From positions 186,001-250,000 of the forward strand of contig JAYWIR010000006.1 of the NCBI GenBank assembly GCA_036172245.1: a stretch of DNA of 64,000 bases, in the 5' to 3' direction. This DNA is from Raillietiella orientalis. Its lineage: Eukaryota. The first letter of the stretch is position 1; every line of letters starts with the position of its first letter. The notes below the pieces were generated by a model. The model did no database searches. It was not told the origin of the DNA and was given only the letters and a program-made list of their open reading frames with translations. This document shows, piece after piece, positions 1-42,000 of this stretch. Both the position numbers and the translations under genes were made by a program.

Positions 1-74
1 AAATTATTGTTAGGATGTTTGTTGTTTTCATTTTGACAGCATAATGTATTCCTTTCTTTCTTGAGAATCCTTAG

Positions 75-115
75 GAGATGAAGGCCCACTAAAAGACCAT
101 CAGTACGCTCGCTGA
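75..115 (+). CDS. Possible terminal exon of an upstream gene (…GDEGPLKDHQYAR*)
   Basis: TTAG acceptor at 71-74, short open frame to TGA at 113-115, AATAAA near 286. No family recognised. Confidence 0.25.
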
Positions 116-2665
116 CAGTCATTATCACCTTTATCAGCTGTGTGTGTATTTGTGTGTGTTTTCCATGTTGGATAGTAATAGGCGGAGAAGGCAACGCACT
201 TATGTGAACATTCTGAAGGATGGATTTTCCTAAATATGGCGGTGGGCAGAATGGAGAATATTTGTCAGTGATTACATTAAGCACTAATAAAATAAACGTG
301 GCAGTAAAAAGCATCTTCGGGTTGATGATGTATGTAGGTTAACATCGTTTTCGTTGATGTAAGCGTCTGGTTTGGTTTTCAACGGCGGAAGTGCATTGAA
401 TCAAAATTCTCTGAAGAATTCAAATGACTTGGCCTTGTCAACGGAAACATGAGATCCTGTTTGATGTTTTGCTTATTTGAGGAAAAAAAAAAAAAGCTGG
501 GAACTCTGCTAGCATATGCCGATCGAGTGTCCGATTTTTTATTCTCTATTTTCAGTGAAAATGGTTCCTTTGATTCTGCCGCCAACTGAGCCGTGTCTTA
601 GTTTCCGGCCTTGGTGTGTGCCTCATGAACTTTCGTTTGGACTGCACCCTGGACACCTTAATCAGACAAGGATGTCCGCCGACTGCTCACGGGAGCAGAC
701 ATGTAGCTCACCGCGTTGCCCGGTCGTTAGTAAAAAGTGATCTTTGCGTGATGTCAATGGCTTTCGGCGAAGTGCTCCTGAGAAAAGGACGAATCATTGC
801 GAGATAACAAAGTTAAGTTTGCCGTAACGAATAGAGGAGCCAGGTTTTTGTTGAAGATAACATTAAGAGCATTAACGTGCTATAATTTGTAGTGGTGAAA
901 AAATAGGTATAAAAAAAACGCCGTGTAGCACAGTGTAACGGATGCTGGATATGTACTTGAATGGAGGCATAGCTGTGACATTTGCAGGTAGGTATAACGA
1001 GCACGCAACCTAAGATGGAAAGTTTCTAGTGAGAGTACTTGGAATTGGCGAGTCAAAGTCCTTTTTTATTTGATCAGATGGGGATAGGGTATTTGATTGT
1101 TTCCCTGTTTTTTCTTCCCGTGAAATTTTTTTTTTCTTTTTTGCATGCTGTAAATATTATCAAGCTGTCCTTTGTTACAGTCACAAAGCCCATAACATGT
1201 GATTTAAATACACATTAGATTTGCCAGCTACAGTTTTTCCGTGACTACAGTTATCAAAAAGCGAAACAATTTGTTGCGGATCTCGAAACAAAGAATTGCT
1301 GGCATCCCTTGATTGCTCATGGTTTCCAGGATTGCTGGTTTAACAGAGTTGACCAACTTTGTTGAACTGAGTGCAATTCTGGAAGCGCGTGCTGCCCTTC
1401 CGAAATGGCCTTTAAAGAAAAAGAATGGCTACTTTTAGATCAATTTTGAATCTCGAGTAAACGTGCTCTCGTATTGTATGTACATGCGGCCTGTCCTGAT
1501 TATAGTAGGATTAATATTGGGCATAAAGTTTGAACGGGACAGTCATATAGCATCGATCAAATTTCAGAATTTCATGCCATATGAAACAATTAGGTGAGTG
1601 TATAATGGGTGTTTTCGTACGCATTTGCCTTGGGACTATTTTCAAGACGTTAACCAGCAATAAGTGCATACCATTAGTCTGGTGATGGAAAACTTTTACC
1701 GCCATCTCTGTTGAATGTGTTATTGGTGATTCCATTCATCAGTTTCTTTATGTGCAGTATAATGCATTCAAGGCTTTATTGGACTGCATGGTTGTGAAGG
1801 TTTCGGTGAAAATAAGCGAATGTTGCAAACAAAAACCCTGGCATTCATTACGTAGAAAAATGAAATGTGCGAGATGAATGCATGCTTGTGTTCAAACTGT
1901 TGATTCATGTTGTGTCAAACAATACAGTATTTGTGCAGTAGCATTTCTAGTGGTATTTAGATTCATTTCTATGTTCATTCACTGATGTGGCTACCTTTGT
2001 CTCAAGTTTTGTGGTCAGTCTTTGTAGTACTTTCCCCTAACCGTCGCTCTTTTTAACTTAGCTCTTGGGGAGGTCAACGTATCTTTATCTGATTACTTAG
2101 AGCAAGATAATTGACACTGCGAGCAAGCTTATTACAGTTTTTGCTTCCATTTCATATTTAATACAAGACTGATTATTTGGATATTTGGTTTTTGAAGAAC
2201 TGAGAATGAATAGCAAAAGTAATTCATGAAACTTTCTGTCTCAAATGAAGTTGCACTGTTCTTATTCCAAGATGGCTGCTTGCATGCATTTTACCACAAA
2301 GATTTGCATGTATTTCATCATTGTGACAAATGTGCTAAGGTTTGAAATAACCTGGGAAAACTAGGAACACAAAATGTCTTGTAATCCTGACATGCTATGT
2401 AAACGTGTTTTTTTTTGACGACGGTGTCAAACAAACAATGCACTCTTGTAGGTTAAAACTTAAATGGGTGTATCTTGTGTCATCACACAACATACACCCA
2501 TAGTTTACCATTTTTTTTAAAGGCTTTAAATATTCTACATGAATCTTGAATTATTGTTTCAATTTATTTGTCTTGATTATGGTGAAGTAAAGCATTTCGT
2601 TTTATTAAACTGCAACAAAAACAGTATACCTAATGAAACAGTCTATCACCAACACTTCTGTGAAA

Positions 2666-4207
2666 TTAGTGAGCTCTGCAAAAGAGTAAACTTTCTCCAT
2701 AATGAATCTTGAAATTTTACCTGTGTACTGGATGATTCCGAATACAGTCGATAAGCTCATTTGGAGCCATTTCTTTTGAGCAAATCTTATGCACTGCAAC
2801 CATGAGGGGGAATCTATCAGCGACAAAGTTGTGCTCTGTAATAACCTGTTATGTGTATGTACCTGTCTATTGCTTCTTGTTGACAGAGAGCTTCATATAC
2901 TTCTTCTGCTGTGGCTGGCCCTTGCAATTTCTGTCCATTGAGCATTTCCTGCTCCAGCTCACTGATTGTCTGCATTTACATAGTAAAAGTTGATATAACA
3001 CTGTTAAAATACCTTTCCTGTGAGGACAAAAGCCTCAGCTACTTTCCGATTGCGTCCTCCATAACAAGTAGTAACTAAGTCAGCCACTCCACAACTCTGC
3101 AGAAATGTGTCCAATTTTGTGCCAGGGTATAAGAGACGACAAAACTCCACCATTTCCATGAGACCCAAGCGTAGTACTGCTGCCTTTGTGTTATCTCCCA
3201 AGTGCAAGCCATCCACAAATCCAGCTCCTACTGCTACCACATTCTACTACACTCCTAATCAATGTTTCATTGTAACTACCCACTTTAAGGGCACCACACA
3301 TTTCCACGGCCTCCACATCATCACATACTACAATACGAAAATATGGTGTCTCAATGAGGGTTTTGAACACTGTTCCCTTAGTTGGGCACTTGCATCCTTT
3401 GGAGCAATGAATTACTGCAACAAGTTGTATCACATACCTATGGTGGTCTCGCAAAAATACTCAGCTGCCACTTCCTTAGCAATGTTAGCACCCATCAATA
3501 CACTAACATCAATGTGCAATAAATTTTCAATAACTTTGGAAATCAGCTGTACCCCATGTCCTGGTACTGTATCAAATCCCTATCAGCAAAATAATTTACA
3601 CATACAATTTTCATGTACGTTTACCTTAATTAATGATATACCAAAAGCTTTTGGTTTCAACTTTCCAACCAACTGTCCACAAATTGGTGGTACAAACTGA
3701 TGTGGAAGGACGAAAACTAAAATGTCTGCATCTTTGGCAGCTTCCACAACGTCTGTAATGGCAACCTGGTTTTGACAAAAATTTTCTTGCACATGCATGC
3801 TTTTCACAATACTTACCACATTGGCAGGGAGCTTATAACCGGGTAAGTATTTAATGTTTTCATGCTGTGTATTTATGATTTCCGACAAATTCTTTCCTGA
3901 GACAACCTCTTCATACACAAAAAGGTTCACTGCATTGTCGAAGTAATCGTGCAACGTAACATTGTGCCCTATTATTCGTGCGATTGCAGTACCCCTTTAT
4001 GGAACAAAGCATATGTTTCCTGTTACATTCGCATGATTTTTTTCACTGTGACTGTTAGCTAATTTCCAGGTCACAAGCATTTCGATTGTAGTTAATTCAT
4101 GCTGATCACTGCTCATGAAAGGAAAAATCTTACCAATTTCCTGATCCAATAACCGCTACTCTCAGTCTTGTTTGTTCATTAAACGTGATATCTTCACAGG
4201 CAGTCAT
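2666..4207 (-). CDS. Gpdh: NAD-dependent glycerol-3-phosphate dehydrogenase, 9 exons, 362 aa
   Basis: Exons 4207-4134, 3994-3817, 3765-3625, 3579-3438, 3396-3284, 3243-3013, 2969-2863, 2813-2721 and 2675-2666; all GT-AG and phase-consistent (1089 nt). Motifs: [68 protein letters not shown]. Minus-strand AATAAA near 2601. Confidence 0.97.
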
Positions 4208-6811
4208 ACCGAACCGTTAAGGTATTCAATCCTTTATACACAGTTCATGTCACTTTGGCCAGACCGTGTACCCGTGCTGTAGTACTAGAATATCCGTTCA
4301 CGCCTCAACCGTGCACTCCACTTTCACAACCACACTACGTCGAACGTTTCCATAAGTGTAGTGAAGAGGTGCGGACTTTATACCGAACAATTGCAAGGTC
4401 ATCTCGCCCAAGTAGGGGTGCGGTGAGGTACCGGAGAGGGGAAGCCTGCGAGTTGCAGTGGCTGCAGTTGTGCGTCTACTACTACCATCATTCACCGATC
4501 GGGGGGATCCTGGCTTCCGGAGTGTGCATTAAAAACCATTTTTTGAACCCGAGGGAGGAAGGAGCTCGTATGCCCGGACAACCCGTTCACGCTCCGATCT
4601 CCTGGATGGTTGAATCCCTGCAGCCGCTGCCTGCCCGGCTTGAGGTTGGGTTGCAGAGCACGGGAAGGAGGTAGTCAAGGCGACGCGCGGGAATCCCTGA
4701 TGCACTGCTGAACTCTTTTGGCGACCTCGTTTTTTCGTCGTCGAGCGTCAAAGCATGGTTCAAAAGAAAAAAAAACAGAATCTACCGAATGAGCGGGACG
4801 TAAATTTAAACGAGAAAGAACAAAACCAGAGAGAATTGAAATAGGGAAAGTGAAGCACGACGGCTGAGGATGAAGGAAAAACTGCTCTCAAGTTGTGGAA
4901 ATGGATGCGTTTCATGAAGATGCCAAGCGCTTGCTCGAAATGTCTGGCGGAGTAGCGAAGTCGATTGGAAACTTTTTTCTTTGAGGAAAGTCCGAGGACC
5001 GGGATTATATCAGCACTGCCGTGGAAGGCAAAGCGGCGCCATCCCAGAGTGGCAGAGTCACGTGATGGCGCTTGTCGTGTCACGCCAGTGTCGCAGTTCC
5101 GGGGCGGGTTATCTTCCACGTGCGCGTGCAGCACGCGTGCCCGAAGCTGCATGCGCGCGCGCCCACGCACGCGTTTCCCGCGATCGTGTGAAGACGACCG
5201 GGCGAACCCATGCTCTCCATCCCAGAGCGCGCGAAAACACCGCGAAGGTGTCTTTCTCCTACGCCCACGCACCTCCCCCACTCAGGAGACTGCTGATGCC
5301 TTGGGACTGGGAACTTCCCATCTGCTGCGATTCCTGCTTGCTGGATGGGCTGCACGCGTCGCCACCGTTACCGTTTCGGAACACCTCGCCGTGCGCTTGC
5401 CGGCGGCAAGGTGGAAAGTCTCCCGGAAAGCGGCTTTTCCGGTTCGATGGGGAGGGGCAGGCGAAAGTAGGAAGTGCGCCCATCCCGATTCGCTCGGGGG
5501 CGCCGCCTCCAGGGTCAGAGTTCATCCCCTACCACTTTCGAGCGGTTCTCTTCGATGACTCTCCCTCCCTGGCTCTCCTCCTTCCGGCCCCATCCTGGAA
5601 GGACTTCAGTAGCCGCTACCTCGTCAGTCCCGAGAGGTGCGGGAGGAGGAAAACAGCAGCAGACGCCGTGTTCCCGGTTCCTGGTAGACGGATGCCCCTT
5701 CAGGATGCGAGAGGATGCGGGCCGCCTCCGAAGCTGTGGCTGCGAGGGGCAGACCGGAGAGAATGGGGTAACGGGAGGGCAGGGAAGAGACCGCCACCGA
5801 AGCGCCCCTTGGCGAACTTCTACCGGGAATCATGGAGGAGGGAAGGCTTGCCGGAGCGAGCTCCCGCTCTCCAGGAATGGGGAGAGACCGAAAAGGAGGA
5901 GGATTTTTTTTCCACGCTCTGCAGGCGGCGCCTAGCGGTCGAAAGTCCAACCGTTCCTCGGGAAAGGCGGGGTACGGGGAGAGGGGTGAGGAAGGGGAGA
6001 GGAGGAGTGTGAACCCTTGGGAGCAGCCAACAAGTTCGGAACTTGCAGGGGCGCGTCCCTCCGGCAATTCCCCGGTGCTGTGTGCGCTTTTGCGTGAGGG
6101 GGAGGGGCCCAGGGATAAAGGATAAAGGGAGGGAGAAGGGGGAGGGAGAAAGGGGAGAAAGGAAAGTAGGGCGAAGGGAAGATGAGGAGGAAAGGAGGAA
6201 GGAAGGGAGGAGGAGGAGGAGGGAGTTCTGCGGGCGTACCTCAAAGGATTTTTTTCCGTGTCGCGGACGAAACCTGGGGGCGTTCCCCACGCGGAGCTCC
6301 CTGCACGGTCTCCCGCACCCTCTCCGGAGATCCCGCATCTTCCGTAATTACCGCAGCTTCCACCTTCACCCCCACTGCCACCCCTGCGCCATGCGGTGCT
6401 CTCCTTAACTGCCGCCACCCTGCAGGGACTCGGCGCCATCGTGCGCGCGCTATTTTGGTCTTCCCGCAGGCTCCTTCCCTCTTCCCCTCCTGCTTTCCTC
6501 GTCACCGGCTCTTGCGTCACGCTGCTGCCGCGGCGGGGAGACTGCGCCTCTCCCCCAGGGTCACGGCGCGCCGACTGAAGCGCTTTTTTCCCCCTTTGAC
6601 TTCTGGGTTTTCGCAGGAGCGCAGCCCGATGGATGTGCGTTCCCCAGCACCCCTCCATTGGGGGATGGAGGGGGGAAAGCACGAGTTTGCCCTTCTTTTT
6701 CACCTTAAGGACATCCCTGGACCCCGCCGGCTCTCCTTTAACAGCCTTTACAGCACACCAGGCGCCTCTTCGCGTCCCCGTCCTCTCCTCCCCTCGCCCG
6801 ACCTTCGATAC

Positions 6812-6885
6812 AGGTTCTGTGCACGGGTAATATCACGGTCTGGGATCGGAAGAGAGATGTGATTATTGCTAGTTGAAAACTTTCC
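6812..6885 (+). ncRNA. U4 snRNA-like 5' domain, copy A (variant or pseudogene; no Sm site)
   Basis: GATTATTGCTAGTTGAAAACTTTCC matches the metazoan U4 stem I/central domain. The 5' end resembles U4 stem II. The intervening part folds as the 5' stem-loop kink-turn: AUCAC/GUGAU, GUC/GAU, 3-nt bulge, tandem GA, UC-GGAA-GA. Confidence 0.75.
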
Positions 6886-7449
6886 GAACTTCACTGGGAT
6901 TGGATGGCCGTGGAACACCCTCCTTGGTCCTCTCCCCTCCTCCTTCCCAGTTTCCTGGGGACGAGCAGGACAATCAGCGAAGCGGCTTCGGAGCGAGCGG
7001 AGGCTCGGGCGACCGCGCACATTTTGCTCGCGGGCGGCTTTTGGGGTGGTTCCGCGCAACACTTGGACGACTCATCCACGCCCCGGGGTGGTCCCACTTG
7101 ATGGTCGATCCTCCCCGGGTGGAGATGGGGGCATGAGCTGGCACCCTTTCTTGTCCGTTCCCCCTTAACCTCTCTTTAGCTAAGACGCAATCCTTCCTCA
7201 TCCAGGCAGTCCAGGGGCTCCTCTCCGACCTCTTGAAGGCCGCTCGGCGCTCCCGAAGGAATCCGGGGGAACGCGCGTGGTTCCCTTCGCTGGGTGGACG
7301 GAAGGATCACGTAGAACGAAGGAAGCTGGGTCGTTGCATCCTCCGGTATTTCTTGTCCCGTCCCGAGGAGCTTCCCTGCGCGCGAAAGACCGACCCATGA
7401 GGCGTGTTCCCCGGGAACCGCGGGGACTCAGGACTTTCGCCTCAGCCCT

Positions 7450-7900
7450 TATCGAGACCTCAGCGTTTCGGAAGCAGGTTGGATGGAGACCTCAAGAAGA
7501 CGCGCAAAGGAAAGGACGGGTAGTGTTGGAACTGCGCGCTTTCTTTTATGCCTCCAGGGACCCCCTGCTGGGAATTTCGTCTGATCACCGCCAAGCAGTC
7601 GCGATCGCGGAGAAATTTCGAGGGAGCGCGCGAACCCAGTGAGCTCGGGGGACGGGGGACGACTTCCCGGGATGAAGGTCCAGGGAATTCCTCCGTCTTT
7701 GCTCACTTTGCCGTCCTGTTCGCGATCACTTCTGGGATTCCTCCTTCCTCATCGGACCCCTTCGTCGGGGGATGAGGCCCCGGTCTGCAACCCCAGTCCG
7801 CATCGAGGTTATGCTGGTTCCAGGGACAACCGCGAGGCGCCTCATTAAGTCGAGGCGTAGCCGCGAAACCTCCAGCTCTCGCGCCGCCCCGTCATTTCGG
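7450..7900 (-). mobile_element. Degenerate LTR-retrotransposon integrase remnant
   Basis: Frameshifted peptides GGIPEVIA, GIPWTFIP…PELTGFARSLE and RAVPTLPVLSFARLL resemble the integrase core motifs GxPxxIxSDNG, PQSNGxAER and SPAELL in order. Confidence 0.35.
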
Positions 7901-9849
7901 AGGCCCCGAGACCCCTCAGCGCCCACCGTCAGGGCTCTGACGGTCAATTCCGCGGTCGGCAGGGATGCGGGGTCTTGGAGCACGATGTCATCGTTCTCGG
8001 TCTGCTTTCTATGCGGTACCCTCCTGGATGCGTCAGAGCACCGCCAGGGGGAGAGGAGGCGGCCGAGAGGCAGCACCGTGCGCAACGGTTCGGCGCGAAG
8101 GCTCGTACCCGCACGCGTGGCGTCTTCCGCGTCTGAGTCCCTGCCTGTGTCACGCGATCCCCCTGACGGGGGACCTTCTTGAGCCGGACAGCGCGCATCT
8201 CGGAAGCCTCGTGGACCCGCTTCCCCCCCTCCTTCCTTTTTGGAGTTGGGAAAGCAGCTGGAACTCCTGCAGAGTCCGACACGCGACGCGACTCTTCCCT
8301 CTCGCGGCTGCGGCGCACGCGGCAACGACCTGCGGCCACCTTGCTGCCTGCATGCGACAGTGGCACTCTCCCCTCTTCTCCACAAGACTCCCGCAAGCCG
8401 GCGGCACCCTCCCAGTTCCCTCCCGGAGGTTTTCTGCAGTCGAGTCCCTCAGAAGGAGCGGCAATTCTGCCTTCTGCCTCCCCATCAGCTGGTCGAGGTA
8501 GGGCTTCGTCAGGAAGCGAAGCGGCGCTCTCCCTCGCTGCCATGGTTCCGCGGCGGCGGTGGCGGCTGCTGGAGTGAGCTGGCCGCCATCCGCGGGCGTG
8601 AAGAGCTCCCTCTTCGCTTCCCAGCTCTTCCGCTCAAGACTTCACACCTTCCCGCGCCGTCCATCTTCCCTCCAGTCCGCTCGACGAGGGTGCCGGCGGG
8701 CTGTTCCTGTCGGTCCCCTCCCTCCCTCGACTGCGTCACTCCGCGGGTTTCCCCGTCTCATCGCGAGGCCAGGGACATTCCCGCCCTCGAGGCCGACCGA
8801 CTTTCGCGCTCTCCTTTGCCCACTTTCCTCAGAAGCCGGGGCTGGCTGGAGGGAGTCCAGACGTGTCCTCGCCAGTCCTGGCGGGTCCCGACCGCGCGGA
8901 GTTGCGCAGACCGTCTCGAGGTATCCTGCCTCCGCAGCAGGCGGCTCTGTTCCGTGGGGGATTTTCTTCGCAGATGCTGCGACTCGAGGGAACTCTGCGC
9001 TCGGAGAGGTCACAAGGGCCGCATCTGCGCAGCTACGGCGCCCTTCGGAGCTATGCAAGGGGACGGCTGCTACGACTGAATGACCTTGGCGCGGACGATA
9101 ACAGCGGGCGCCGCGGGCCCCCTGCTTCACTCCTCCGAAGCGTGCCACTGGCGCAGAAGGATCGCGCGCGCGCGTTCCCTTCCCAGCTGTGCCCCTCCCG
9201 CGTTCGGGAAGCAGAAGCAGTAGCACGGACTCTGGGAGGGGGCGCGCGGGTTCTTCCTAGAGGCGAGTCCGCGCCGCGCTCTCCCCTCCCCCCTTCTTCT
9301 TCACCAGCCTTAGTCGGCGCGCGCCCTCGAGCAGCGGGACAGCGGGGCCTTTCGCAAGGGCGCCACCGACGACTTTGCGACCCACGATGAGCCCGGAACG
9401 CGTCGCTGCGCATCTCAGCTTCCACGGCTTGTTTCCGTCGCCTTGGTTCCGACCTTCATCCGCAACGTTTCCGGGTCCTTCTCGAGCTGGGGAGCTCCTC
9501 CGCCTCATCGGGAGGGACTCTTCGCCACCCTCCGCAAGGCGCTTGACTTTGGAGCGCACCGCTTGCGCCATCCTAGCGACGGTGGAGGCGGGCCTTCCGG
9601 GTCAACGCAACCCTGCGTCCCTACGGACGGAACCGCAGGGTGGAATGGGAGCGAAGAAGGGCGGCACCTCTCAGGAGCAGGACCGTTTGGCACCCGTTCA
9701 AGCGGCTCTGTCGAGCGGTGCTCCCCGCCAGCGGACGCGCGGCAGCAGCAGGAAGCAGGTAAGGGGCAGTGGCGCTTCTTTAGGAGGTCCCCGTCCCGCT
9801 CTCGCTGCGGGCAGGTTCTCCGGGTGTCTCCGCTGATGGCGAGGCTGAT

Positions 9850-10100
9850 TTCGGGACGGATGCTCGAGGAATATTCCTGCTGCTGGTGGTGGTGAGACCC
9901 ACCTTTTCGTCAGCGCCTCCCGCTTATCTCACCGGAATATCTTCATCTCGCTCTGACTGGCACGGAGGAGGATCAGTCAGGCTCCTCGTGAAGTCAGAGA
10001 TGGCAGCGCGAGAAGTTCCCATGCCGCGGAAGACTCGAAAGCTCTTCCGAGTGATTTTTATTGCCAGCATGGGAACATGGGGGGAAGGGGGGCAGTTTTT
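9850..10100 (+). mobile_element. Possible degenerate LINE APE-endonuclease fragment
   Basis: YLTGISSSRSDWHGGGSVRLLVKSEM resembles the APE motif GY..FRxDR..GGGVxLYVK. Confidence 0.3.
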
Positions 10101-15730: not shown

Positions 15731-17504
15731 TCTGCTTCTAGGTGGTAAGTGGTTAAGGAAAGGATGAGGGTTAAGCAGAAAGATGCGTAATTGTGAAAGA
15801 TTCTACGTCGAAGCTCAACTTCGAAACGATTTTTTCCTCAGAGTGTGAAAAGTGGACCCAGGAGCCTTGAGTGATCTTAGTTTCTTTTAGAGAATGCTTC
15901 TTTCATGGGGATCCCGAGTTTGAGAAGCTTCACTGAAAACAAATTCTCCAGAAGCGCTTTCCAACTTTTGTGGTGGTTGGGAATTTGCTGAAGAATAAGT
16001 AAGGCGGCAGGACACAGGAGAACAGCTGCATTCTGATTAAGGGAACTCACTTGAGAGAGTGAAAGAGGATGGAACAGTGCCGTGGGGAATTCTTTTTTCC
16101 TATCTTCGAGGATCAGTGGGAGGATTTTGATTTTTCACAGACTAATGGCAAATCACTTTGTGTGCGACAGAAGAAATTTAGAATAGAATTAGCTAATAAG
16201 CAGTTTCCGAAAGAAACAAGCAACGAGGTTCCTCTGTCCCATGTACATGAAATCAACCTCAGCTTTCTTCTAGAACCACAAATATCCTTCGGACCCATGC
16301 ATCAGCATTGTCTGCTTTCATTCGTGATAAAACCGGGCCCGTTTTCCCTGAGTTTCAGAAAATCTGAGGCATCAGCAGAGTACGTTGCATTCCTGAAGAA
16401 ACTTTCGCGCTTTTCTGTTTCTACCTTGGATTGAACGTTATTTTCATGATCACCAGCGTGCGCCTTGTTAAGGATGCAAAAATCTTTTGGGTCAGCGATG
16501 ATGTTATGCGCAACGACATTAAAGATGACATTTCAGGAAGCAATCGCAAAGCATACTCCATCTTCTGGAACGAGGATGGAATCATTTTCAGGGGGTGCAC
16601 ATTTCCAGTTCCCCAAAAATCGACAGTAGTGAAGGAAACGTGTTTCAAGAAGCCGAAGACTTTCGATCTATTTCCTACCCGAACTATAAAAAAGGGCAGT
16701 CTATAGATTCGGAGTTTTTAATTCATGATGATTACAAAAAACGTGTTTTTGAAAAAGCAGACAATATATCTAGCAAAAAAAACAGGTGATCACTTTTGAA
16801 AGTGCACGAGGCCTCCAGTCATATTTTGTCTTTGAAGTGAAAGATCTGAGCAGCCAGGTTCCCTTCAGAAAACTTGTTTTGCAGGTTATCCGTGCCCTCA
16901 TGAGGAAATTTCTCAGAAAAGGAATTTCAACAATCTTTCTGGATGCTTTCAAGAGATGGCAGGTTCTTTGAACTTCGTTCTTTGAACAAGAGTTCCTTTA
17001 GAAAGCCCAAATATTTAGAAAGATCCCACGCATAGCTCATAGTATTTCATTTCAAGAGATCTGAAATGGAACAAATAGTTCCTCCAAGATAGAAGAAGGA
17101 CTTTCAAATGTGAAGGTTCTTGATGTCTCTTCGAAAAAAAAAAAAAGATTCCCCAGTAACTACTGTACACAAGTAGCAATAATTGCATGCAGTTGAATTT
17201 TTACACCGAAGCCAGCCATTGGCGGTTGCACGCACTTGCTGGCTGCTTGCTGGTTGATTACAACTCTTTCATTCTCTTTCAACAGATTGGAATATGGTGT
17301 GGTGCAAGAACGGTCCATGATTCTTTTATGTCCATGTTTCTAGTTCGTCTGGAGATCTGAAGTGAGCCGAGAGATGGTTCAAAATAACCGAAGTTGATTT
17401 GAAAGCAGAGAAGAACAGCATGTTTATTTGAAAGCAGAAATCATTCGATACTTTAATCAGGGCTGGTTGCTACATATTAAAGGACACCTGATGCTTTTTG
17501 AACA

Positions 17505-20500
17505 CTATCTTGTCAAACAGAGCCTGCTGAGCGTCAAGGTCCAAAGATATATGAGAAGAACCGAGGTGTATACGGCAATAGCTGCAGATACGTAATCGTC
17601 AGGACCATATTCCGCTTTCCTGCCTCCCACAATCATCTGGATGTGGTTCATGAGAATCTAAAATTCATACGTATGATGCATACCCGACATCAGATTTAGT
17701 AAGAAATTGTGGTCGTTTTCAAAACTAAAAGTCAGATGAGCAGAGCGATGTTTGGTTTGAGAAAGCCAAAACAGATTTTCCGGAGATACGCACATATCGG
17801 TGTACTAGATACTTTCGGTATTGGGGTATGATCGTATCGGAAGGCTTAGAGCCATGTTGTTTTCGTGTCCCAATTGATAGTTTCGCGTCAACCTACTATT
17901 ACGGCATTTTCATCATATTTCTGATCATCATCACGAAATGTGTCACGAAATGATAGCATTCCAGACAATGAGAAGAACACGAATTTTTCTTTCAAAAAGA
18001 GATGGAAGTCATTAGTCATAAGCCGTGTAATAGACATACTGATTTGGAATGGAGTAAGCACTTACTCCTGGAACACATCATAATAGAATGTTTGAAATCC
18101 AAATCTCTCCGACAAAAGACCTATTCTAAGAAGCAGATAAACTGGGAACATGTCTCCAGAAAGCCCACCGAATGGCAGACATCCTCTAGACTCGCGTTGA
18201 GCATAGATTCACTTCCACAATGTACCACTTCTCCTTCCTATGGAAAATTTCCTCAAAGCATTGTTTTAACGCAAAACGCCAGTATGAGAAGAAAAAACAG
18301 CTCCTGCTAAAGGCTGCTCATCAATAAACTACCATGTCGGAGGTAAATTTGCTACATCGGATTTAAACGTATAGGATGATGCTAGATTGCCTAGAACTTG
18401 CAAAATAGCAAAAGCCAGAAAAAAAAACTGATCAGAGGATATGGCCCACAACAACGCTTTTCAGAAAGCATGCTGATATTGTAGAACCAGCTCATGATGA
18501 AATGATGCTGCAATTGTTCTTCATGTGAAGTCCCCGAGCCATTCGAAAAGCTAATGCTTTACAGCCTACTTCTTGAACCATGTCGTAAACCAGCGGTGAC
18601 ACCTGTAAGGGCGTCTTCATCTACGAAACGAAGAACGCTTTCAGCTTCTTGACAACTTCCACAAAGCTCTCTCTCCATGGGAATGCCCTTGAACACATAG
18701 ACGTTGCATCCTGAAGGTACTAACTGCTGTAGGGAAAGATGCTCAAGAGCTTAAGAATGAACCATTTACTGGCAATGAGAAGATTGTCTCTCTATCCCTG
18801 GTGGTCTAAGAATTTTCTCTCAGCTATCGCAAGTTGACTGGTTGCAAGCACGAAGCGAATAAATGAGTACAGGTTTTGGCTCCTGAATGTTGGAAACAAC
18901 TGGCTGTAAGTCCCATCAAGAAAATTCGCAGGAGATTCAGATTCACGGAAGCAGGTACGTAGCATTAGGGAAGTGGGGGATAAATCATTTTCATACAAGA
19001 ATGCTATACTCGCAAAATACTAATCTAAAGTTCTTAGTTGGGGGGGAATGCTCTTGTGAATCTGTATTTAAAAACAAAAGACAAATCAACACAATTTATA
19101 AGAATAAATATAGATCAGCAGTTTTTAGGCAATTGCAAAGTAAACACTGAAAGTTCAGAGATGGTGCCTATTCATCAATAGGGTCAACAAAAAAGAAATG
19201 ATTCCAGAGGCTCTTCTCAAAGCGTTTGACAACCTGCTGCATATCTTCACATAGAGATGATTCATAAGAATACCTTTAAAGAATAATTTCGGAAGTTTGA
19301 ACGAACGATAGCTGTGTTTTAACGTCAATCTGTAGAAAACACGACAACATTAGCTTTTTGTGTCAAGCTTAGATTTGTCCATGATTTCGAAATCAACTGC
19401 GCATCCTGCAACAGCTGATTTTGTAAGGGAGGGGGAAACATGGGAACTTTTCTCGTTTCTCTGTCATCTCCCTTCAGTACACAAAGTGCTGAGAACGTCA
19501 ACAAATCGATAACCTGCAATTCAACCCGCAGTGCTGCTCGCTGCATTGCTTTTCACGTGTTTGCTACAAGAGTCCGAGCATCCTTGACTCCTTCCACTTG
19601 ATTTCTCAGTTCCACAAAAGTTACAGAGTTCACAAAGTTCATAACTGTGAATGCAATGCACGCCATTGTTCATGCATGGGGGTTCAGCGACTCATCAACA
19701 CTATCAGGCTTGTTTACCATTATTCGATCCAACTTTACTCTTGAGAACTGGCTTTTGATACACAGCAATGACAGTATTTCTTAACCGTCATTTCCACACT
19801 CCTTATTTAACCTCCTTAGTTCGGTTTTCTCCTTACCGTCATCAAGCACTTTTAGATCATTGCTTCTGATTTAGGAGTTGAACAATGGGGAAAAGACAAA
19901 AAAAAAAACCTTTTTACTTTCGATAATGGAGCTGCTGCTTCTGTCTTCAAAATTCATGCAAATGTCTTTCTGATTTGCTTCTTTGCTAACACCTACTATT
20001 GGTTTCATCTGATTCTGATGTTCTCTAAGTGAAATCCACCTTTTTCATATTGCAGACATACCCTACTGTTATTGGGCACTATTTCAAACTCTCCTAGAGT
20101 ATTATTCATCTCTTTAGCGATCGGTAGTCTAGCCAACCAAACGTTTCTGGGAGATCGGTTTGCTAAGCCAGAGGTGAGTAGGAATTCACGACGTACTATA
20201 TGTTTTTTGTGATCGACATGGAGAAGCTGTGGAGGTCTACTGTTTTCCATGTGCAAAGCTGTTATGAATCTGCAACAACAAAAGAGCTAAATTGCCAAAA
20301 AGCTGGGACGAGCCGAGTCTAAAGCTAAGAGTCTGCCATTTGTTTTGAGTTGGTATGGATCATGACATTCACATTTGGATTATGAAAAAAACCAGCACTG
20401 CGATAAGAACGCCATTTCCTATTTGTTCTCATTTGCGCCTTGTGAAATATATTGGGAAAATGGTACCAAGTAAACTTCTTGGAGCTTCTCGATTGCGTGA

Positions 20501-23500
20501 CTCCCAATGCGGTGAAACGCCTTTCCACAAAAAAATCGCGGGTGAATATGAATGATCATCGATATCGCAGGACCTGGTGATCGATGGATACATAATTAAT
20601 TTTCCCATCGCAGCTTCTATGCATGAATACTGCCTATGCAATGCGGAAGCTCATAACGAGAATTGGTTACATTGAAAATACTGAATTCACTTTCAATCAT
20701 CAAAAATCACTGCAGACTTCAATAGGATTTTGGAGCTTCTTTGATTGATACTGCTTGATTTTCACGCTTAAAGCGTTGAGTGACAAAGAAGTATTGATAA
20801 TACTTAGTTGGTACCGATTTGTTCGACACTTTATATTCAGCTTGCTTTTCAATATAAATAGGCTATACTCAAGAAATGTATACATCTTTTTGTTCAGCTG
20901 CATGTGTGTTTACGAAGCAAATAACAAATGTGAATGTTCGAATGTGTTCGAATTCCTCTTGAAGAGATTCCTTCTTTAATGATTGGTATAGGACTTGTCA
21001 TCAGCGATTAGGAATGTATCCTTTAGATTTATCCTTCAAATTGCAGGCTTTTCTTCATTCGTATGTTGATTCTTAGGGAATTTTGGTGCACGTGTATGTA
21101 TCTATCGTTCGTAACACTTCACTTGAGAGTCGCTTCCTGAGACCGCAAAAGGAAGCCAGCGAAGGACGCAGTATCCCGGCAAATATGCGAAACTGGAGAG
21201 AGTCACTCATTCCTGAGGCCTCTCTCGTTTTCATTCACCCCCATTGTGGTCCAGTTTTCTCACAGCAGGCTGAAGAGAAATATGGTTATGCTGATTTTGC
21301 AAATCTTGGTTTTGCGCGATTCACAGGTCTCTTAAAAGATCTCTTAAAAGTTCTTCGGTGGAGCCCCATCACATGTCCAACGTCGAATTGGTTTCCATTT
21401 CCAATTTGTTTCGTCCATGCCTTTGCGCTTTATACACAGGTTCGAATAGGAATCGAAAATCCTCTCTCGATGCTCCCTTATCAAGAGAATGAGTGCAATT
21501 TCAATGATGCATGTCATTCTCAGAAATTGAGCGGTTGTTTAACATACTAAACAACCACTCAATTTGTGCGAATTCTAGAAGCATTCTTATAAATTTTATA
21601 AACATCACACTTGCATGTGGTTCTACATATTTCGGCAATTTTCAATTCGTGGACCAAAGAGCGAGTTCTGGTTTCCACTTCAGACTATCCAGTCCCTACT
21701 GTGATCCGAGTTTGAAAGGTAATTTGAAGTTACGTGACAAGCATTCAGTACTTTTTATGTCAACCAAGAATTTTAGCCAAACTTCAGAGAAAGTCGCTCC
21801 AGATTTCTCGAAATTTGATTACTTTTACGTGGGAAACCATAGTGTTTTCACCTTCATGTTCGCATTCGATGGACACGAAAAATCTTTATAATTTCCGGCT
21901 TCAGCAGGGAATTTCAGTCTGGTATCGTTCGATTCAGTCAGAGGTTCTGGATTTTGAATCTAAGCTTTCCATTTTTGCAGTAATGGAAATAAGTATTTTT
22001 AAGGTGGTCATATCTCTATCGCTCAACTCATTATCTCAGCGCGAGTTTTTTCTTGATGTTGTTGCTCATTTTTTTCAAGTTTAAGGTACATTTTCGGAAT
22101 GATACTCATTTTTCCTGAGAAAAACTGAGAAGCAAACGATGAAGGGATTTGAAATTAGAGAGCTTCTATCCTCGAAGACATGTCGCTTGCAACTTTTGAC
22201 GACAGACAATGTGCCTTTGCTGAATGGTTGCAAAAATCAAAGAAGCTGGCTTGTTTTAAGGATCATTTCGGGACTTTACATAAGCCAGTTCCTCCTCCTC
22301 CTTTTTCTTTTTCTTTTTTAAAGATAAATACATGAACATTATTACGCACAATAATTCTGTAATAAAATTCTGCCAATATTACGGAATTCTGCTGTGTGAA
22401 GAAAGGTATGAATGAAACATGCAAAAATTTACCACACAAAATATGACTACAAATATCGCAGCGAGTATCATGTGCCAATAGGGAATGTATGCAGCCATTA
22501 AAGGAGTAATGATGAGGAACAGTAGCATCACCAAGATAATAATGAGCAGAGCTGCTGTCCACTTAGTGATATCAACCTAGAAAGGAAAAAAGACAAATAA
22601 GAAAAATGGATGTGCAATAAAAAATATGTATTAGACGACACACTGAATAATTTTCTCCTTAAAATAAAAGGATGTTTATATCTTAGACCAAGTTGCAGTT
22701 GAGCTGTAAGAGATCAGTCATCCTGAGAGAAGATTCCCAGTTATGCCAAGGGGGGAGTGATGAGATGAAGAACTTTTAGGGGGACTACAATCATTCCAAG
22801 AAACTATCCGTGAAACGGAATTGAAACAAAATTACGTTAACTTTCAATGAGTGATGCTTTTCTCGTGATGGAAAGAGGGAAAAGTCTTCAAGCTTCCTCG
22901 CAGAGGTTTGCAAAATCAGAAGGAGGAATAGGCTTTTATTAAAATTAGAGGAAATCTGTCTCGAAACCTTTGAATGAGTATGTATTGGTGGAGGTAATCA
23001 CTTGCCGTATGTGGTTGTTTGCATACACTTTTCCTGTCCCTAAGTAACGTACTAGGAGTATAATAGGAGCTGAGTGGCAGGTACCTGGTCTCAGTCTCCG
23101 AAACACATTTAAAGTATCCAGTGTTTGAGTGATGATAAGCTGTAAAGAGTGAAAAACTACAAGTAATATAACCTATGTTTCTCGTGTGTTTTTGGATTCA
23201 CATGATCTTGGGAAGAAGGTTTTCTCACCTAGAATTTTCATCAATGGAGGTCTAAAATTAGAGGAATTGGAGTTGGAATTTGCCCTCTGTTTACTATCTT
23301 GGCTGATAACGCACGTAAGAATTTTGTAAAGAAAGGTAATGCACGACAGAGCGTGATGATAGCATCGTCCAAGAAAAAGGCATGAGACGCATTCCTGCTG
23401 AGAGGGTTAATGAGCAGACCAAGGAAAGATTCATAAAGATTTTTTAATTTTGAAAAGTGGACCTCTTTTCAAGTTGATCTTAAGTTTCTAAAACCTAGTC

Positions 23501-26500
23501 CACTGAAACTAACAGCTCAACATTCAGAATCCCAACGAACTATTGATGCTTATTCAAAAGGAGATGCTTATTAAACGGTTTCATCGCAAGGATGTGTTTT
23601 CCTACTCATTGCACACAGATTTACCATGTGTAAGTCATGTGTTCCCAAATTTGTAGCTACATGATGGATCTCGTGAATCTCAGTAATTCCTCAGCTCAAC
23701 CTATTTCAATGCTAATTTTCCAGAACGAAAAGTTTGATTCGGGCTAGAGATGGTGAAATTTCTCCATGAAGTGAGTTGGAAACCATCGGACTCGTGGACC
23801 AGTTGGTTAATAATGTTTATCAGGAAAATGAATAACACTGAATAGCAAAGAAAATGCCTTGTGAACTCCTGTGAAAGAGAAAGAAGAAATTCTCACACGT
23901 CTATATTTCAGTGCTTTCATGAGTATTAATGGAAGAAGAGAAATACAATCCTTAATTGCTGTTGTTAGGTGCTACAGAGTTCCAGTGCATGTATGCTGCG
24001 AAAAGAGTAGGTAAAATACCATACAAATCAAGCGTCTCACTTTTTGATGGTGTTGTAACATTTCTTCCAGAGACCTTCTCAGCTGAACGAAACCCAGAAT
24101 CGAACGTTGTATTACCATTTTTCAGAAGTTCCAAGTGTACTAGAAACTTTGCCTTAAACTCCTCATTCCAACTTCGCCAGCATGCCTTACACTCCGTTAA
24201 AAAAGCATCGCTCACGATACGGTAACATTCACGTGTAATTCCCATTAGAAGATAGCAATTGTCCACCAAGCCAAAAATGTGGGCAAAAACAAATCCAGAA
24301 AAGTCCAGATAAAATGATAACACTTTTATGAAAGCGCATCCAGAGAAATTTCTTGTGCCGAGGAATTTTGCGAACAAAACTTATCACTCAAGGAAAAACA
24401 ATAACAACAACAACAACAAAAACACCCCCGGACAGCGGACTATGCTCTTGGAACAGTTTTAAACTGATCTTAATCCTAATGCAATCCGGTGTGCAGATGT
24501 GTGTGCAAGCGGTGTGCAATCTTAATGCTTCCGTGAATGTAGCGCAGCTGACATATGCAGATGCAAGCGATTTTCTCATTTTCTCAATAAATCTACGCTG
24601 GCCAAAAAGGTGTGTCATGAAATGAATGTGTAATCAGAGAGCAAAGTTGATGAAACGAATAACCTTAACGAATACAACTTTTACTGCGCCGTTTCCGACA
24701 ACGTATCTCTCGCCTGGAACCAGTTTGCGAAGAGTTGTTGTTTAGAGAGTTTTTACCGAAGACACCTTCTTGAGTTGTTCCGCCATTCTGTCGAAATATC
24801 GAAAATCTAGACTTTTGAAGGAAAAGGGACAAAAATTGTACCAAGGGAACGCGACACATGCAAAAAGGGAACTTTTTGCACGTGTCGCGTGTCATATGGA
24901 GGGAACTTCTGAAGAACATCGGAAATGATTGCAAAGTTCTAAGGTTTCTGAAGTTGATGCCAGCATTGAGCTTCATTTCAAAACTATGCAATAGATAAGT
25001 GCATATGCATTCTTCTGATGTTCAGTTCAATCTTGAATATTTCTCACCTTTGTTTGGATGGCGATGCAGATGACAGCCAAGCACGTTAAGGTTGTGACAC
25101 CGAAGGCTACAAGGACTACGTGACTATTGGTATATGCGCTTATGATCCCTACGCTCCAAGTCACCAAAAGTACCTGGAAAAATTTACACACTTTACTCGA
25201 AAGAATATGCTTCCTGAGCGTTTGACATCATGCAGCTGAAATGGGATGCTTTCATTAGTGGAAAGTGTTTTTCGAAGTAGATATGCAGAACGAGGAAATC
25301 TGGGAAATGGGTTTTCTATAGGATGGCCAACAAAAGTATGGGAGGATAGTTTTTGCAAACAGGTCAATTTACCAAGGAAATGAGTTCCGTTTGATCATAT
25401 TCAAGGCATTAAGTCAGAAGCTGAGGATGAAAGCAGTTGTTAACCCCGAGTAGTTTTGCTGAAGGACGAAGCGGAAAGTCAGCGAGAGGACGCCCACTCT
25501 AATTTTCGGTATTAGAGATACAGCATCTTGTACGTTTCATATCTTGCTGTTTCGAGATTGCCAGAAATTAGGGAGAACACAAGCATTAATACTGGTTGTC
25601 AGCAAAGAGTGCAAGCAAGGCAAACAACAAAAATGAATCAAATCTCTTTTCTTACTGAAGCTCTGTGTGCAAAAGGAGGAAAAAAAATAAAACATTGAGT
25701 TGAAAATGCAGCTGAAAGACAGCTTTGATGATCTTCGATAATGTTCCTGTAAAGCAAGCACTCTACAAACAAAGTCTATCTAATTAAGGAATGCCTATAG
25801 AAATTTCTCAACTCACGTAGCAAGTGTACAGGATGATGTTCACGGGAAATTTCTTTCGAGCGGCTTCAATGCATGATATCATTAGGCTGATACCCAAGGC
25901 AAGTATGCTAGAATGAGTCCATAATTATGAGTTACCAAAGAAGAGTGTGTACTCACATAGTGATATAGAAACTGTAGAAATGCTTTTTGCAAAATCTCTG
26001 GACTTCTTCGCTGATACGATTGGAAGTTCTCTGCTTTGATTATTAGTTTAGGGTACTCACACAAAGATAGTTGTCGCTATCCAACCAGAAGTGAATAATA
26101 AACTAAGAACAAGAATGGTAAACACCTTTTGTATGAATTGGTGTTTAATTTTTATGCTTTCAAACGGATTTTCCACGTTTTCAACGTTCTCCATGGGAAT
26201 CACTGTGAGTGGAGGTTGCACATAATTTTGGTTGTACTAGGAATACGTGCAATTGCATATCAGAAATCCAATAAATAACCATCAGTGATGCATGCTTGCT
26301 ATCAATACATACATCAGTTTTAATGAACAGATGCTCAAATATTCATACTGTGTAAATTAACATATGCAAATTATCAAAAAAAAAAAAAAAAAATCGAAAA
26401 TGGAAATGGTTAAAATTCAAACGGTGCGAATGAAATGAAGCTAAGTAACAGGATGAATATTCTAAACTCCCAGAGAATATGCTCTAAATAATTTTATTTT

Positions 26501-39000: not shown

Positions 39001-42000
39001 GCGAGTTTGCAGGAAAGTGGACAGGAACTCGTGGGATGCTTGCAGACGAGCGCGAATTCCCTCCCCCGCTTCCCTTCTGGAAAGGGCAGGAGACACTGCT
39101 CGGCTTCTGGGGTGAGCCGGCACGCCCTCTCTCTCTCTTCGGGAAACCCAGTTGGCCTAAAGCCATTTTTCCTCCGCCGTGGTCATCGCCTCCACTAGGA
39201 CAAGCACTCTTGGAGGCTACCACGATCCCAATCCCGAAAACCGCCACTCACGCCTGTATACTTCCTGTATACTTCTTAACCTTGCTCACGGGCAGTATCA
39301 ACGCCGCTGAACTAAAGGGAGGTGAGATTATTGCTAGTTGAAAACTTCCGTCGGGTCCATCCATGACGCTCCTAATGCTCTCCCTCTTCAGCAGCCTTTG
39401 GGTCTCAGAGGAACAACTCCGAGGAAGGAGCTAACTCTCGTTTAGGGAAGAAAGGGGAGAGATACCTTTCCTAAAAACGACCGAAGATGACTCCGAAGGG
39501 CGAATAAGGACAGATGGGGCACCAAGATGACCTCTGAAACTTCTGAAGGGAATGGAATTTTCCAAAAAACTGTCTGGGAAGAACGGAAGGTTCCTGGAGA
39601 TGCCCAGGGAAACCGTGGTGCCCGTGGCACACACCGAGCGAGAATAGAATCTCCATGGATACGGGCGGAACCCTGGGATGCTCCAAACGAGCAAGAAGAG
39701 TTCCATCACAGGAGGGAAGACTCGCAACTTGTCCGAGATCGTGGCGTCCTTTGCTGGAACACGGTTGATGTGTCCTTCGATGAAACCGCGCGTCTGACCA
39801 TCCGGGTGATCGGGAGCGAGATGGCTCGGGAGAGCGAAGGAGATCGTGGACCACGCTCCGATGATGTAAGGACGGGGAAAATCGAGAATGCATAGCGGCG
39901 GAGACAACGTTCAGTTCCGGATGCTGGATGATGACAATTTGGGGCGTAACAATTCTGCCCACGTTCTCCATTTCTGGAATGCCCCACCTTCGCGACCTAT
40001 TCCGCGACGAAGCCTCGCGCTCAAGCCTCGAGCACTGGTGGGACCAAGGAAGCTTCGAAGAGGAGGCAGGAGACAGGATTTCCGAATTCCCATCCCGGCA
40101 TCCTGTTTCAAAGGCATTCCTGTCTCTCCTCCGGCGTCCTGTTCTTTGGGGCCCTTCCGCGATGCCCTCCAGGTTCCCTGGAGGTCCGACTGGACCAGCG
40201 CCCCGTCGAAACCATTTCGCCTCATCGAGCGCTCGTCGTCGTCGTCGGCTTGCATCCGGTCGCCCGCGGCTGAAAGCAGCGCCGAGACCCGCGTCGTTCG
40301 CTCGAGCTGACCTCTGCCTCGGTTCTCGAACTTCCTCGAAGACCAGTGGATGCGCGTCCCGGTCGTTTGGTCCGGTTCTCGAAACCAAACTTTCCAGGAC
40401 TTTCAACCACTTCGCGCGAGGTGGCTCATGGCCGTCAGTCTCCAGAAAAGATATCCTTCGAAGAGCGGGTTGGCGCTTTTTGAGAAATGATGAGCGCGTA
40501 GCATTTTTTCTTTTTTAGAATGAATTGTTTCTTAGATTTCTGGACGGTTCGTTTGGGAGCCGTGCGGGCTTCACGTTGCTCCTCTGTGAGGAGGGCAGTG
40601 TGAGTTTCGCGTTCCACTCCGACTCAGCAGTGGGTTTCTTGCAACGAATGTGTCTTCTACATTTACACGACCGGCTTTGCAATGCATATGTTCTGAAGTT
40701 CCACGCACTGCCACCGACTACTGTCTCTCCGTTCTTGTCTGTTCTGCCGTGCCGGCACACCTTTCATCGTCACACCCACATTTGACGACTTTGATTTCAT
40801 CGCAATCAGTTCACGAAAGGGAAAGAAAGACCCTTCACTAAGGATGCTCCCATTTCCTCAAGAACAATCGAAAGAGCTGGAAATTCTTTCTGGAGATCCT
40901 CGTTTACCTGTTACTATGGCACACTGGAGGAGGCGTTCTGCAGATCATTTTCAGTGAAGCTGTCCTCATAGCGGCGAAGAGGTTCTTGCTACGAGGAGGT
41001 GATGCTCACCGAAAATCTGTGCCAGTTCAAATCCTCTCGTAGGCTGTCTCCCCAGCGACCTTAGGTTCAAGGCTTGCCGACTTGCCTTCCTCAATAAGCA
41101 TATCGATTTCTCATTCCTGGAGTTTTGAATCATTGTGCTGCTAAAGGGAGCACAGAGTGCATCCGTGCAAATGAGCGTTCTCCATCACTGTGAAACGGAC
41201 AATCACGTCCATTCTCTTACGCCTTCAAGACGGAGGTTTGCTTTCGACATCTGCATCCGCGATCGCAAAACTTGGCATCTTTCCCATCAGGAACAAAACA
41301 ACAAAACTTTCTTCTTCGGACTGCCTTCTTTTGCTTCCTGATGAAAGCTGGTACCTCTTCGGTATGACATCCTAGGACTCGCTGAGCACTCCAAAAAGCG
41401 TACACTTGATTGGAACGCTTGTTTCATGCTGCTTAAGCACGGATTGCAGATTCTCATGCTCGCTTTGTCGGGAAACTTCGTGTCCAATCACGCATTGGGT
41501 GAGAGCCCTTGTGGTATAGGAGAGCTGGAAGAAGAGATGAAACCCAAGAGGAAATTCTACATTCCAGAAAGGATTAGCCCTCCCAGGGTAGCGCATGGAT
41601 TCAGTACCTGAATTACATCTGCAAGAAGAAACAGACAACAGTTCGTTTTCATGGGGATTTAGATGGTTTTCAGTCTTCGTGGAGTATAAACTCCTTGCAC
41701 CGGGAGAGGTGTTAGCGCTTGTGGGATGTGGCGTGTTCCGGGTAGAGAGGGAAGATTTCCGGTCTTCAGCGCAACCTAAACAACTGAAATTCAGGCTTCT
41801 CGTTGTAATCCTCGTAACTCGCGATTAGAAAATTTCGACGATCTTGTTTAAACCTCTCCAAAAGAACGCCGAAACTGTGCTCCCTTGAAGGAACCATTTG
41901 AAGCCTTCCTTCCGTTTCTCCATGTCCTGTTCCCAGCGAATTCCCCAAAGATGCGATTTCGTTGAGATTCCCTCGAGGCGGCAAAAGCTGAGATCTCTCA

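Follow-up and report, generated by a model that had tools for sequence, protein, structure and literature searches.

Two U4 snRNA 5' halves without an Sm site in a 64-kb eukaryotic DNA window

A U4 5' domain at 6812-6885

The DNA analysed here, called the window throughout, is a single stretch of 64 kb that contains two loci resembling the 5' half of the U4 snRNA. The first of them (copy 1) is read as a U4 5' domain on the plus strand at 6812-6885. The reference U4s used for comparison are 60 metagenome loci retrieved by a generic 22-mer, which is identical in all of them, and all are animal-type U4s. The parts of copy 1 are:

6812..6831, plus strand: stem II strand, 20 nt (Rfam alignment; alignment to 27 distinct reference U4 5' parts)
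6832..6863, plus strand: 5' stem-loop with kink-turn (read from the sequence; 10/10 pairs standard)
6864..6885, plus strand: stem I strand and central single-stranded segment (Rfam consensus; match in copy 2)
6886..6928, plus strand: stretch aligned by Rfam to the U4 3' domain (only two weak hairpins)

Copy 1 is the 5' half of a U4 snRNA, with both U6-pairing strands and the kink-turn hairpin between them. The hairpin begins with a 5-bp outer stem (AUCAC 6832-6836 with GUGAU 6859-6863) and a one-base bulge (G6837), and continues with a 3-bp C-stem (GUC 6838-6840 with GAU 6856-6858), a 3-nt bulge (UGG 6841-6843), the tandem G.A pairs (GA 6844-6845 and GA 6854-6855) and a 2-bp inner stem (UC 6846-6847 with GA 6852-6853) that carries the loop GGAA (6848-6851). 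Kink-turn residues are numbered after the available part of PMC2952850. At the third bulge position, copy 1 has G, while copy 2 and at least 95% of the 27 distinct reference U4s have U.

These elements have known roles in a real U4, where Snu13 and, after it, Prp31 bind to the kink-turn hairpin. Snu13/15.5K recognises the flipped-out U in the third position of the bulge, and Prp31 gauges the 2-bp inner stem. The stem II strand presumably pairs with the conserved U6.

The initial annotation had described the stems and the fold of this hairpin, an intact stem I segment and an overall likeness to U4, and all three descriptions hold. Every stem and fold feature is found within 6812-6885, and 6864-6883 (the stem I and central strand) is identical to the Rfam U4 consensus. 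Concerning the likeness, the whole Rfam U4 covariance model (RF00015) aligns to 6813-6928 on the plus strand with 45.2 bits, with an E-value of 1.1e-8 in a 1.1-kb search and 6.2e-7 across the 64-kb window. Such low E-values indicate that the U4 likeness is real and not due to chance. It should be noted that the curated threshold of RF00015 is 46 bits and that neither copy reaches it; a default Rfam scan of the window is empty because copy 1 falls 0.8 bits short. The alignment owes its score to model positions 1 to about 85. With canonical U4 (RF00015), the window copies have in common the stem II strand, the kink-turn with its 3-nt bulge, the tandem G.A pairs, the 2-bp inner stem, stem I and the GAAAACU segment. 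They differ from it in their scores (45.2 and 40.4 bits) and in having neither 3' stem-loop homology nor an Sm site, and copy 1 differs also in its third bulge base.

A second U4 5' half at 39278-39353

A 25-mer from the conserved segment of copy 1 matches 39326-39350 with two mismatches and was matched in 0 of 100 shuffles. This match lies in a second U4 5' half (copy 2), missed in the initial annotation, whose parts are:

39278..39353, plus strand: copy 2, second U4 5' half (Rfam 40.4 bits, E 1.9e-7)
39278-39296, plus strand: stem II strand (alignment to reference U4s)
39297-39328, plus strand: kink-turn hairpin (canonical GCU bulge, tandem G.A pairs, 7/10 helix pairs)
39326-39347, plus strand: conserved 22-mer (identical to copy 1 and to the Rfam consensus)

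The Rfam alignment of copy 2 takes only the first 72 model positions (whole-window E 1e-5), and its U4 likeness ends near 39349. The kink-turn core is kept, including the canonical U at the third bulge position, and copy 2 is nearer to the reference U4s than copy 1 in the 3' strand of the hairpin and in the bulge. In its helices, the 7 of 10 pairs that are left are compatible with random change (P 0.14-0.20), and by its sequence copy 2 looks decayed.

A search of the window with a 19-mer, allowing up to three mismatches, returned just copies 1 and 2, both exact, and no decayed intermediates. The Rfam search of the window revealed neither a U6 gene nor any further family of interest.

Directly upstream of copy 2, at 39253-39274, there is a perfect tandem duplication of the 11-mer CCTGTATACTT. 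The final bases of copy 2 (TGAAAACTTCC) match this unit at 9 of 11 positions, a likeness that could be microhomology at an insertion junction.

Absence of the 3' half and the Sm site

Both copies are devoid of the U4 3' stem-loop, the Sm site and the terminal hairpin. The strict Sm motif RAUUUUUGR and the looser AAU[AU]U.U are both absent from the 100 nt after the conserved segment of each copy, in agreement, for copy 1, with the initial annotation, which had reported that no Sm site follows. Among the 54 reference loci with at least 75 nt downstream (six of the 60 were too short and were left out), the looser motif is found in 53 and the strict one in 43. The one reference locus without the looser motif, L014, carries GAUUUUUUG; it was considered as an example of a truncated pseudogene and rejected on account of this motif and its score of 79 bits. 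In the whole window, RAUUUUUGR has only two matches, at 16613 and 20700, both on the minus strand.

Searched with a profile HMM of 39 distinct reference 3' domains, the downstream sequences of both copies gave no hits, with filters off and E-values up to 1e6 accepted. Sequence support for the Rfam alignment of copy 1 is absent beyond about 6897, and the two hairpins that can be drawn downstream are not better than those of shuffled sequences (21 and 16 of 200 fold as well). Moreover, of 200 shuffles of the 119-nt unit of copy 1, 197 fold better than the unit itself. A long U4 whose Sm site lies farther away was also considered, in the form of a 186-nt extension reaching an AUUUUG at about 7013. 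It was rejected because the extended fold is unremarkable (z -0.81) and the motif is buried inside a helix. A limited literature search found no described U4 without an Sm site.

Divergence from reference U4s and signs of constraint

Regarding the scores, 12 of the 60 reference loci were run against the Rfam model and gave 69.1-129.4 bits, versus 45.2 and 40.4 bits for the window copies. Compared with 58 reference U4s, the nearest reference is alike at 34 of 49 positions for copy 1 and at 33 of 48 for copy 2; among themselves, the reference U4s are alike at a median of 41 of 49 positions.

The most conserved Rfam U4 stretch is a 22-mer located at 6861-6882 in copy 1 and at 39326-39347 in copy 2, and the two copies show no differences in it (0/22). 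Outside the 22-mer they are 41% different: in the 49 nt 5' of it, 29 positions are alike, 19 are different and there is one gap. This contrast is unlike plain decay from one parent and calls for either two different parents or continued constraint. Part of it is ascertainment, because copy 2 was found through the 22-mer.

The conservation alignment comprised 27 distinct reference 5' parts (57 loci) and had 45 columns conserved at 95% or more, 22 of which are invariant by construction because they are the 22-mer used in the search. Outside the 22-mer, 7 of the 23 conserved columns are changed in each window copy; inside it, 0 of 22 are. An untouched 22-mer next to seven other changed conserved columns, taken together with the ten standard hairpin pairs of copy 1, shows that U4-type constraint shaped the sequence. 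Furthermore, since neutral decay from an animal-type U4 would not be expected to spare the 22-mer twice, functional parents seem probable; to judge from the copies, the parent or parents would have been functional U4s already strongly diverged in the 5' 49 nt.

Three of the changed columns lie in the stem II strand in each copy, and copy 1 has one inserted base there in addition. Both copies carry in this strand the same G-to-C change, which produces the form CACGGG and falls in a column conserved at 95% or more in the references. This common change points to a lineage-specific parent. A search with the lineage-specific U4 pattern gave 0 loci, both in metagenome contigs and in contigs of prokaryote genomes, and a 20-mer of the conserved segment gave 0 loci in viral contigs.

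As to the surroundings of U4 genes elsewhere, about 130 nt separate a U4 gene from a U1 gene in one metagenome contig (L006, 430-549, minus strand), and in another (L051, 323-405, plus strand) a U4 gene lies near a tRNA gene.

Compensatory changes in the copy 1 hairpin

The initial annotation held that the copy 1 hairpin had been rebuilt by covariation. When compared with two common reference U4 forms, the helices of copy 1 differ at 8 or 10 of 20 positions, with 3 or 4 pairs altered on both sides, and nevertheless all ten pairs are standard. Under random substitution, this has a probability of 3.2e-4 or 1.1e-4, and of 9.5e-4 or 6.6e-4 if the observed numbers of transitions and transversions are kept. 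The claim thus stands for the hairpin as a whole, where 10/10 pairs are kept despite 8-10 changes (P about 1e-3), but it is not supported for the two stems AUCAC/GUGAU and GUC/GAU, which are compatible with chance. The four changes in the outer eight pairs are all transitions, and 8/8 pairs survive by chance with P 0.17, so that the compensation signal is confined to the 2-bp inner stem, with its four transversions. This inner stem is also variable among genuine U4s, where it appears as GG/CC, AG/CU or CC/GG.

The folding energies of both hairpins are ordinary and not better than those of shuffles, which is to be expected because nearest-neighbour models give kink-turns no credit.

An internal duplication in copy 1 was tried as a candidate and rejected. 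It would consist of CTGGGATCGGA (6840-6850), the kink-turn strand of copy 1, and CTGGGATTGGA (6894-6904), 54 nt apart, and this recurrence is marginal (P 0.054 versus shuffles).

Flanking sequences and marks of insertion

The likeness between the copies, and of both to U4, ends within a few bases of a common point, just after GAAAACUU. Beyond the U4 part, the flanks are unrelated: the 250-nt upstream flanks of the two copies align with a score of 18.0 (shuffle mean 18.6, sd 2.8) and the 250-nt downstream flanks with a score of 16.0 (shuffle mean 17.0, sd 2.1). A common promoter element, as is usual among paralogous snRNA genes, is thus not recognisable in these flanks. Comparison of the window with itself by BLAST gave three repeat pairs, none of which overlaps either U4 copy.

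Copy 1 is bracketed by an imperfect direct repeat of 16 nt:

6780..6795, plus strand: upstream unit (ends 16 nt before the U4 5' end)
6927..6942, plus strand: downstream unit (14/16 identical; starts at the end of the Rfam alignment)

Besides these two units, the 16-mer has no further occurrences in the window with up to two mismatches, and an equally good repeat in the same geometry was found at 3 of 400 control positions in the GC-rich blocks. The repeat is CT-rich, and its downstream unit starts 41 nt past the end of clear U4 homology. It is suggestive in that it fits an insertion, though not in the textbook position. For copy 2, the best flanking repeat has 11/16 identities. No oligo(A) is present at the divergence point of copy 1 or copy 2, and no retrotransposon was identified in the window.

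The initial annotation had also raised the possibility that the U4-like sequence is carried by a mobile element. The bracketing 16-nt repeat gives this idea some ground as regards an insertion. On the other hand, the copies are alike only in their U4 part and therefore are not copies of one longer element.

Origin of the two copies

Both loci may well be 3'-truncated dispersed copies of the organism's own divergent U4, and on the sequence features described above we give this reading about an even chance. Copy 1 is most probably a member of the familiar class of 3'-truncated U4 pseudogenes or variants and not a new kind of U4 mimic. The two copies would be processed pseudogenes or "truncated U4 variant genes" of the organism's own, strongly diverged U4, and we infer for them an origin by retroposition or capture, a parent gene and, for copy 1, a silent locus. 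The intact hairpin and stem I segment of copy 1 would have been inherited from the functional parent gene, and selection would have acted on the parent U4, not on the copy 1 locus. This locus would most likely be silent; if it is transcribed, its RNA would have no Sm ring and would be short-lived, though it could still pair with U6. Of the two copies, copy 1 would be either younger or better preserved. Several observations speak against truncated copies: the 22-mer contrast, the absence of decayed intermediates in the window, the CT-rich composition and offset of the direct repeat, the poor flanking repeat of copy 2 (11/16 at best), the absence of oligo(A) and the fact that the parent U4 was not seen.

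Loci of this kind have been described in the human genome, where, according to the available part of Mabin et al. (2021, RNA 27:1186, PMC8457000), 51 of 97 annotated U4 loci are without the 3' half. These truncated loci match U4-1 up to position 68, where the U4/U6 interaction region ends, and diverge completely from there on; the Sm site is missing, promoter and processing elements are missing in many of them, and oligo(A) is often found at the divergence point. The few that are expressed reach less than 0.1% of U4-1, with half-lives of 17-21 min, and have an unaltered stem I; U4-82P is reported in snRNPs and spliceosomes and is able to pair with U6.

The window copies resemble human U4-59P, -82P and -91P, as far as the available description goes, in that U4 sequence extends from nucleotide 1 through the U4/U6 interaction region and gives way to unrelated sequence at its end. 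As in the human truncated U4s, the 3' stem-loop and the Sm site are absent, stem I is unaltered and stem II is mostly intact, and the loci are dispersed single copies with no recognisable promoter elements. However, the human loci described there are close to U4-1 up to position 68, whereas the 5' 49 nt of the window copies are at best alike at 34/49 positions and the hairpin is rebuilt. In addition, the U4 likeness in the window runs a few bases further, to about nucleotide 72-85, without oligo(A), and the case is non-mammalian.

Tailless 3'-truncated retropseudogenes of small RNAs offer a second comparison. In the available part of Noll et al. (2015, GBE 7:889, PMC5322556), these are attributed to LINE-1, which primes internally where the RNA is single-stranded and A-rich, and they have flanking duplications of 8-35 nt with at least 70% identity. 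Copy 1 is similar to them: it is 5'-complete and 3'-truncated, ends beside the A-rich single-stranded GAAAAC and has no A tail, and its 16-nt repeat is within the range of length and identity given. Unlike them, its repeat is offset by 16 nt on the 5' side and 41 nt on the 3' side, where the tolerances stated in that source are 5 and 15 nt. Moreover, the class is described there for therian mammals and LINE-1, whereas the window has no identified retrotransposon and copy 2 has no repeat.

If the loci are truncated copies of this ordinary type, they only show that 5'-half U4 loci, of which the human genome is full, occur outside the mammals as well, and they hint at an unusually diverged U4 in an unsampled lineage.

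Alternatively, copy 1 (6812-6928) could be a working U4 gene, short (about 115 nt) and fast-evolving, whose 3' domain and Sm site have degenerated, with copy 2 as an older pseudogene. In its favour, the full RF00015 model is aligned end to end with a score only 0.8 bits below the threshold, the hairpin has kept its ten pairs, its tandem G.A pairs and the U4-specific 2-bp inner stem, neither of the strands that pair with U6 is missing, and two hairpins are possible downstream of the conserved segment. The 3' strand of the hairpin and the bulge of copy 2, being nearer to the references, are also as expected for a fossil with ancestral bases, and divergent genuine U4s with the same 22-mer do exist (L044, 69 bits). 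Nevertheless, this reading is unlikely, since the Sm site and the 3' homology are missing. An Sm-type motif is absent, though a predicted Sm site is described, in the available part of PMC3510501, even for the U4 of Giardia, which is very divergent. The 3' part of copy 1 is unlike all 39 distinct reference 3' domains, its hairpins and its overall fold do no better than shuffles, and 45 bits compares with 69-129 bits for all 12 reference loci tested. The G at the third bulge base, the inserted base and changed conserved pairing position in the stem II strand, and the direct repeat that brackets copy 1 also argue against a working gene.

A further explanation, close to the one favoured in the initial annotation, is that selection maintains copy 1, and perhaps copy 2 as well, as an Sm-less U4-like RNA outside the normal snRNP pathway, which would pair with U6, bind Snu13/Prp31, act as a decoy or as a variant di-snRNP component and maybe spread by retroposition. 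In a more specific form, copy 1 would be an expressed Sm-less U4-like RNA of about 115-131 nt (from 6796 or 6812 to 6926), or a retroposed copy of one, with both U6-pairing strands and a rebuilt kink-turn of the Snu13/Prp31 type (2-bp inner stem, GNRA loop) kept by selection and a function as a decoy of U6 or tri-snRNP proteins or as a variant di-snRNP RNA in an animal-related lineage that has been little sampled, and copy 2 would be an older member of the family. The pattern is indeed non-neutral, with the 22-mer untouched in copies that are otherwise 41% different, and the inner stem of copy 1 is compensated. The direct repeat would make the inserted unit 6796-6926, including the non-U4 3' part, and the human truncated U4-82P, as noted above, is reported in snRNPs and spliceosomes (PMC8457000, available part). 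We consider the general form improbable, and the specific one equally so. No promoter was recognised, and the scans of metagenome, viral and prokaryote-genome contigs returned 0 loci for relatives. The compensatory signal is 2 bp wide and could be inherited from a parent gene, the helices of copy 2 are decaying, and the copies are alike only in the U4 part. The human counterparts, too, stay below 0.1% of U4-1 and turn over in 17-21 min in the same source. The selection proposed in the initial annotation is not borne out, as nothing places it at the copy 1 locus instead of the parent U4 gene, and a new kind of mimic is not needed because 5'-half, Sm-less U4s are a described class of loci, as far as the available part of PMC8457000 goes. 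If it were true, that is, if the hairpin were specific to the locus and the RNA were made, the locus would provide a natural U4 module without an Sm site that can engage U6, Snu13 and Prp31. It would then be relevant to how truncated U4 variants are tolerated or put to use in cells, an issue that has been raised for human U4-82P but not settled.

Finally, a chance likeness in GC-rich non-coding DNA is hardly credible: the scores are under the Rfam threshold and the hairpin energies are no better than shuffles, but the whole-window E-values are 6e-7 for copy 1 and 1e-5 for copy 2, the 25-mer was matched in none of the 100 shuffles, and every kink-turn element is present in the right order.

Genomic context of the window

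The window is eukaryotic, with a CpG observed/expected ratio of 0.6-0.99, and is a GC mosaic in which blocks of about 38-40% GC (1-4000 and 16000-28000) alternate with blocks of about 60-66%. The main features outside the U4 copies are:

4500-10000, 28500-39000, 46000-49000 and 60000-64000: blocks of about 60-66% GC
about 4020-2723, minus strand: glycerol-3-phosphate dehydrogenase gene, the sole clear gene in the window (Pfam)
56809-57162 and 42656-43042, plus strand: EB-module (cysteine-rich) open reading frames (Pfam 27.1 and 20.0 bits, cut-off 24.3)

Both U4 copies are in GC-rich blocks, which show neither codon periodicity nor third-position bias. Coding exons were recognised only in the AT-rich part of the window. 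Non-coding DNA that is much more GC-rich than the genes is unusual.

A Pfam scan of 436 open reading frames of the window detected only the glycerol-3-phosphate dehydrogenase gene and the two weak EB-module matches, which may be exons of a secreted repeat protein. The dehydrogenase gene has in-frame interruptions of about 45-48 nt that resemble very short introns. The proteins most similar to its product come from diverse animals, with 58-60% identity, so that the organism is animal-related but without a close relative in the protein collection. At 50942-51027 on the plus strand, ARAGORN calls an 86-nt tRNA-Arg(CCG), for which the Rfam tRNA model reports nothing at E up to 0.5; the call is either false or due to a tRNA with an intron. 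A dispersed repeat of about 325 nt, whose units at 54113-54435 and 40058-40382 are 83% identical, is the only one of any size in the window.
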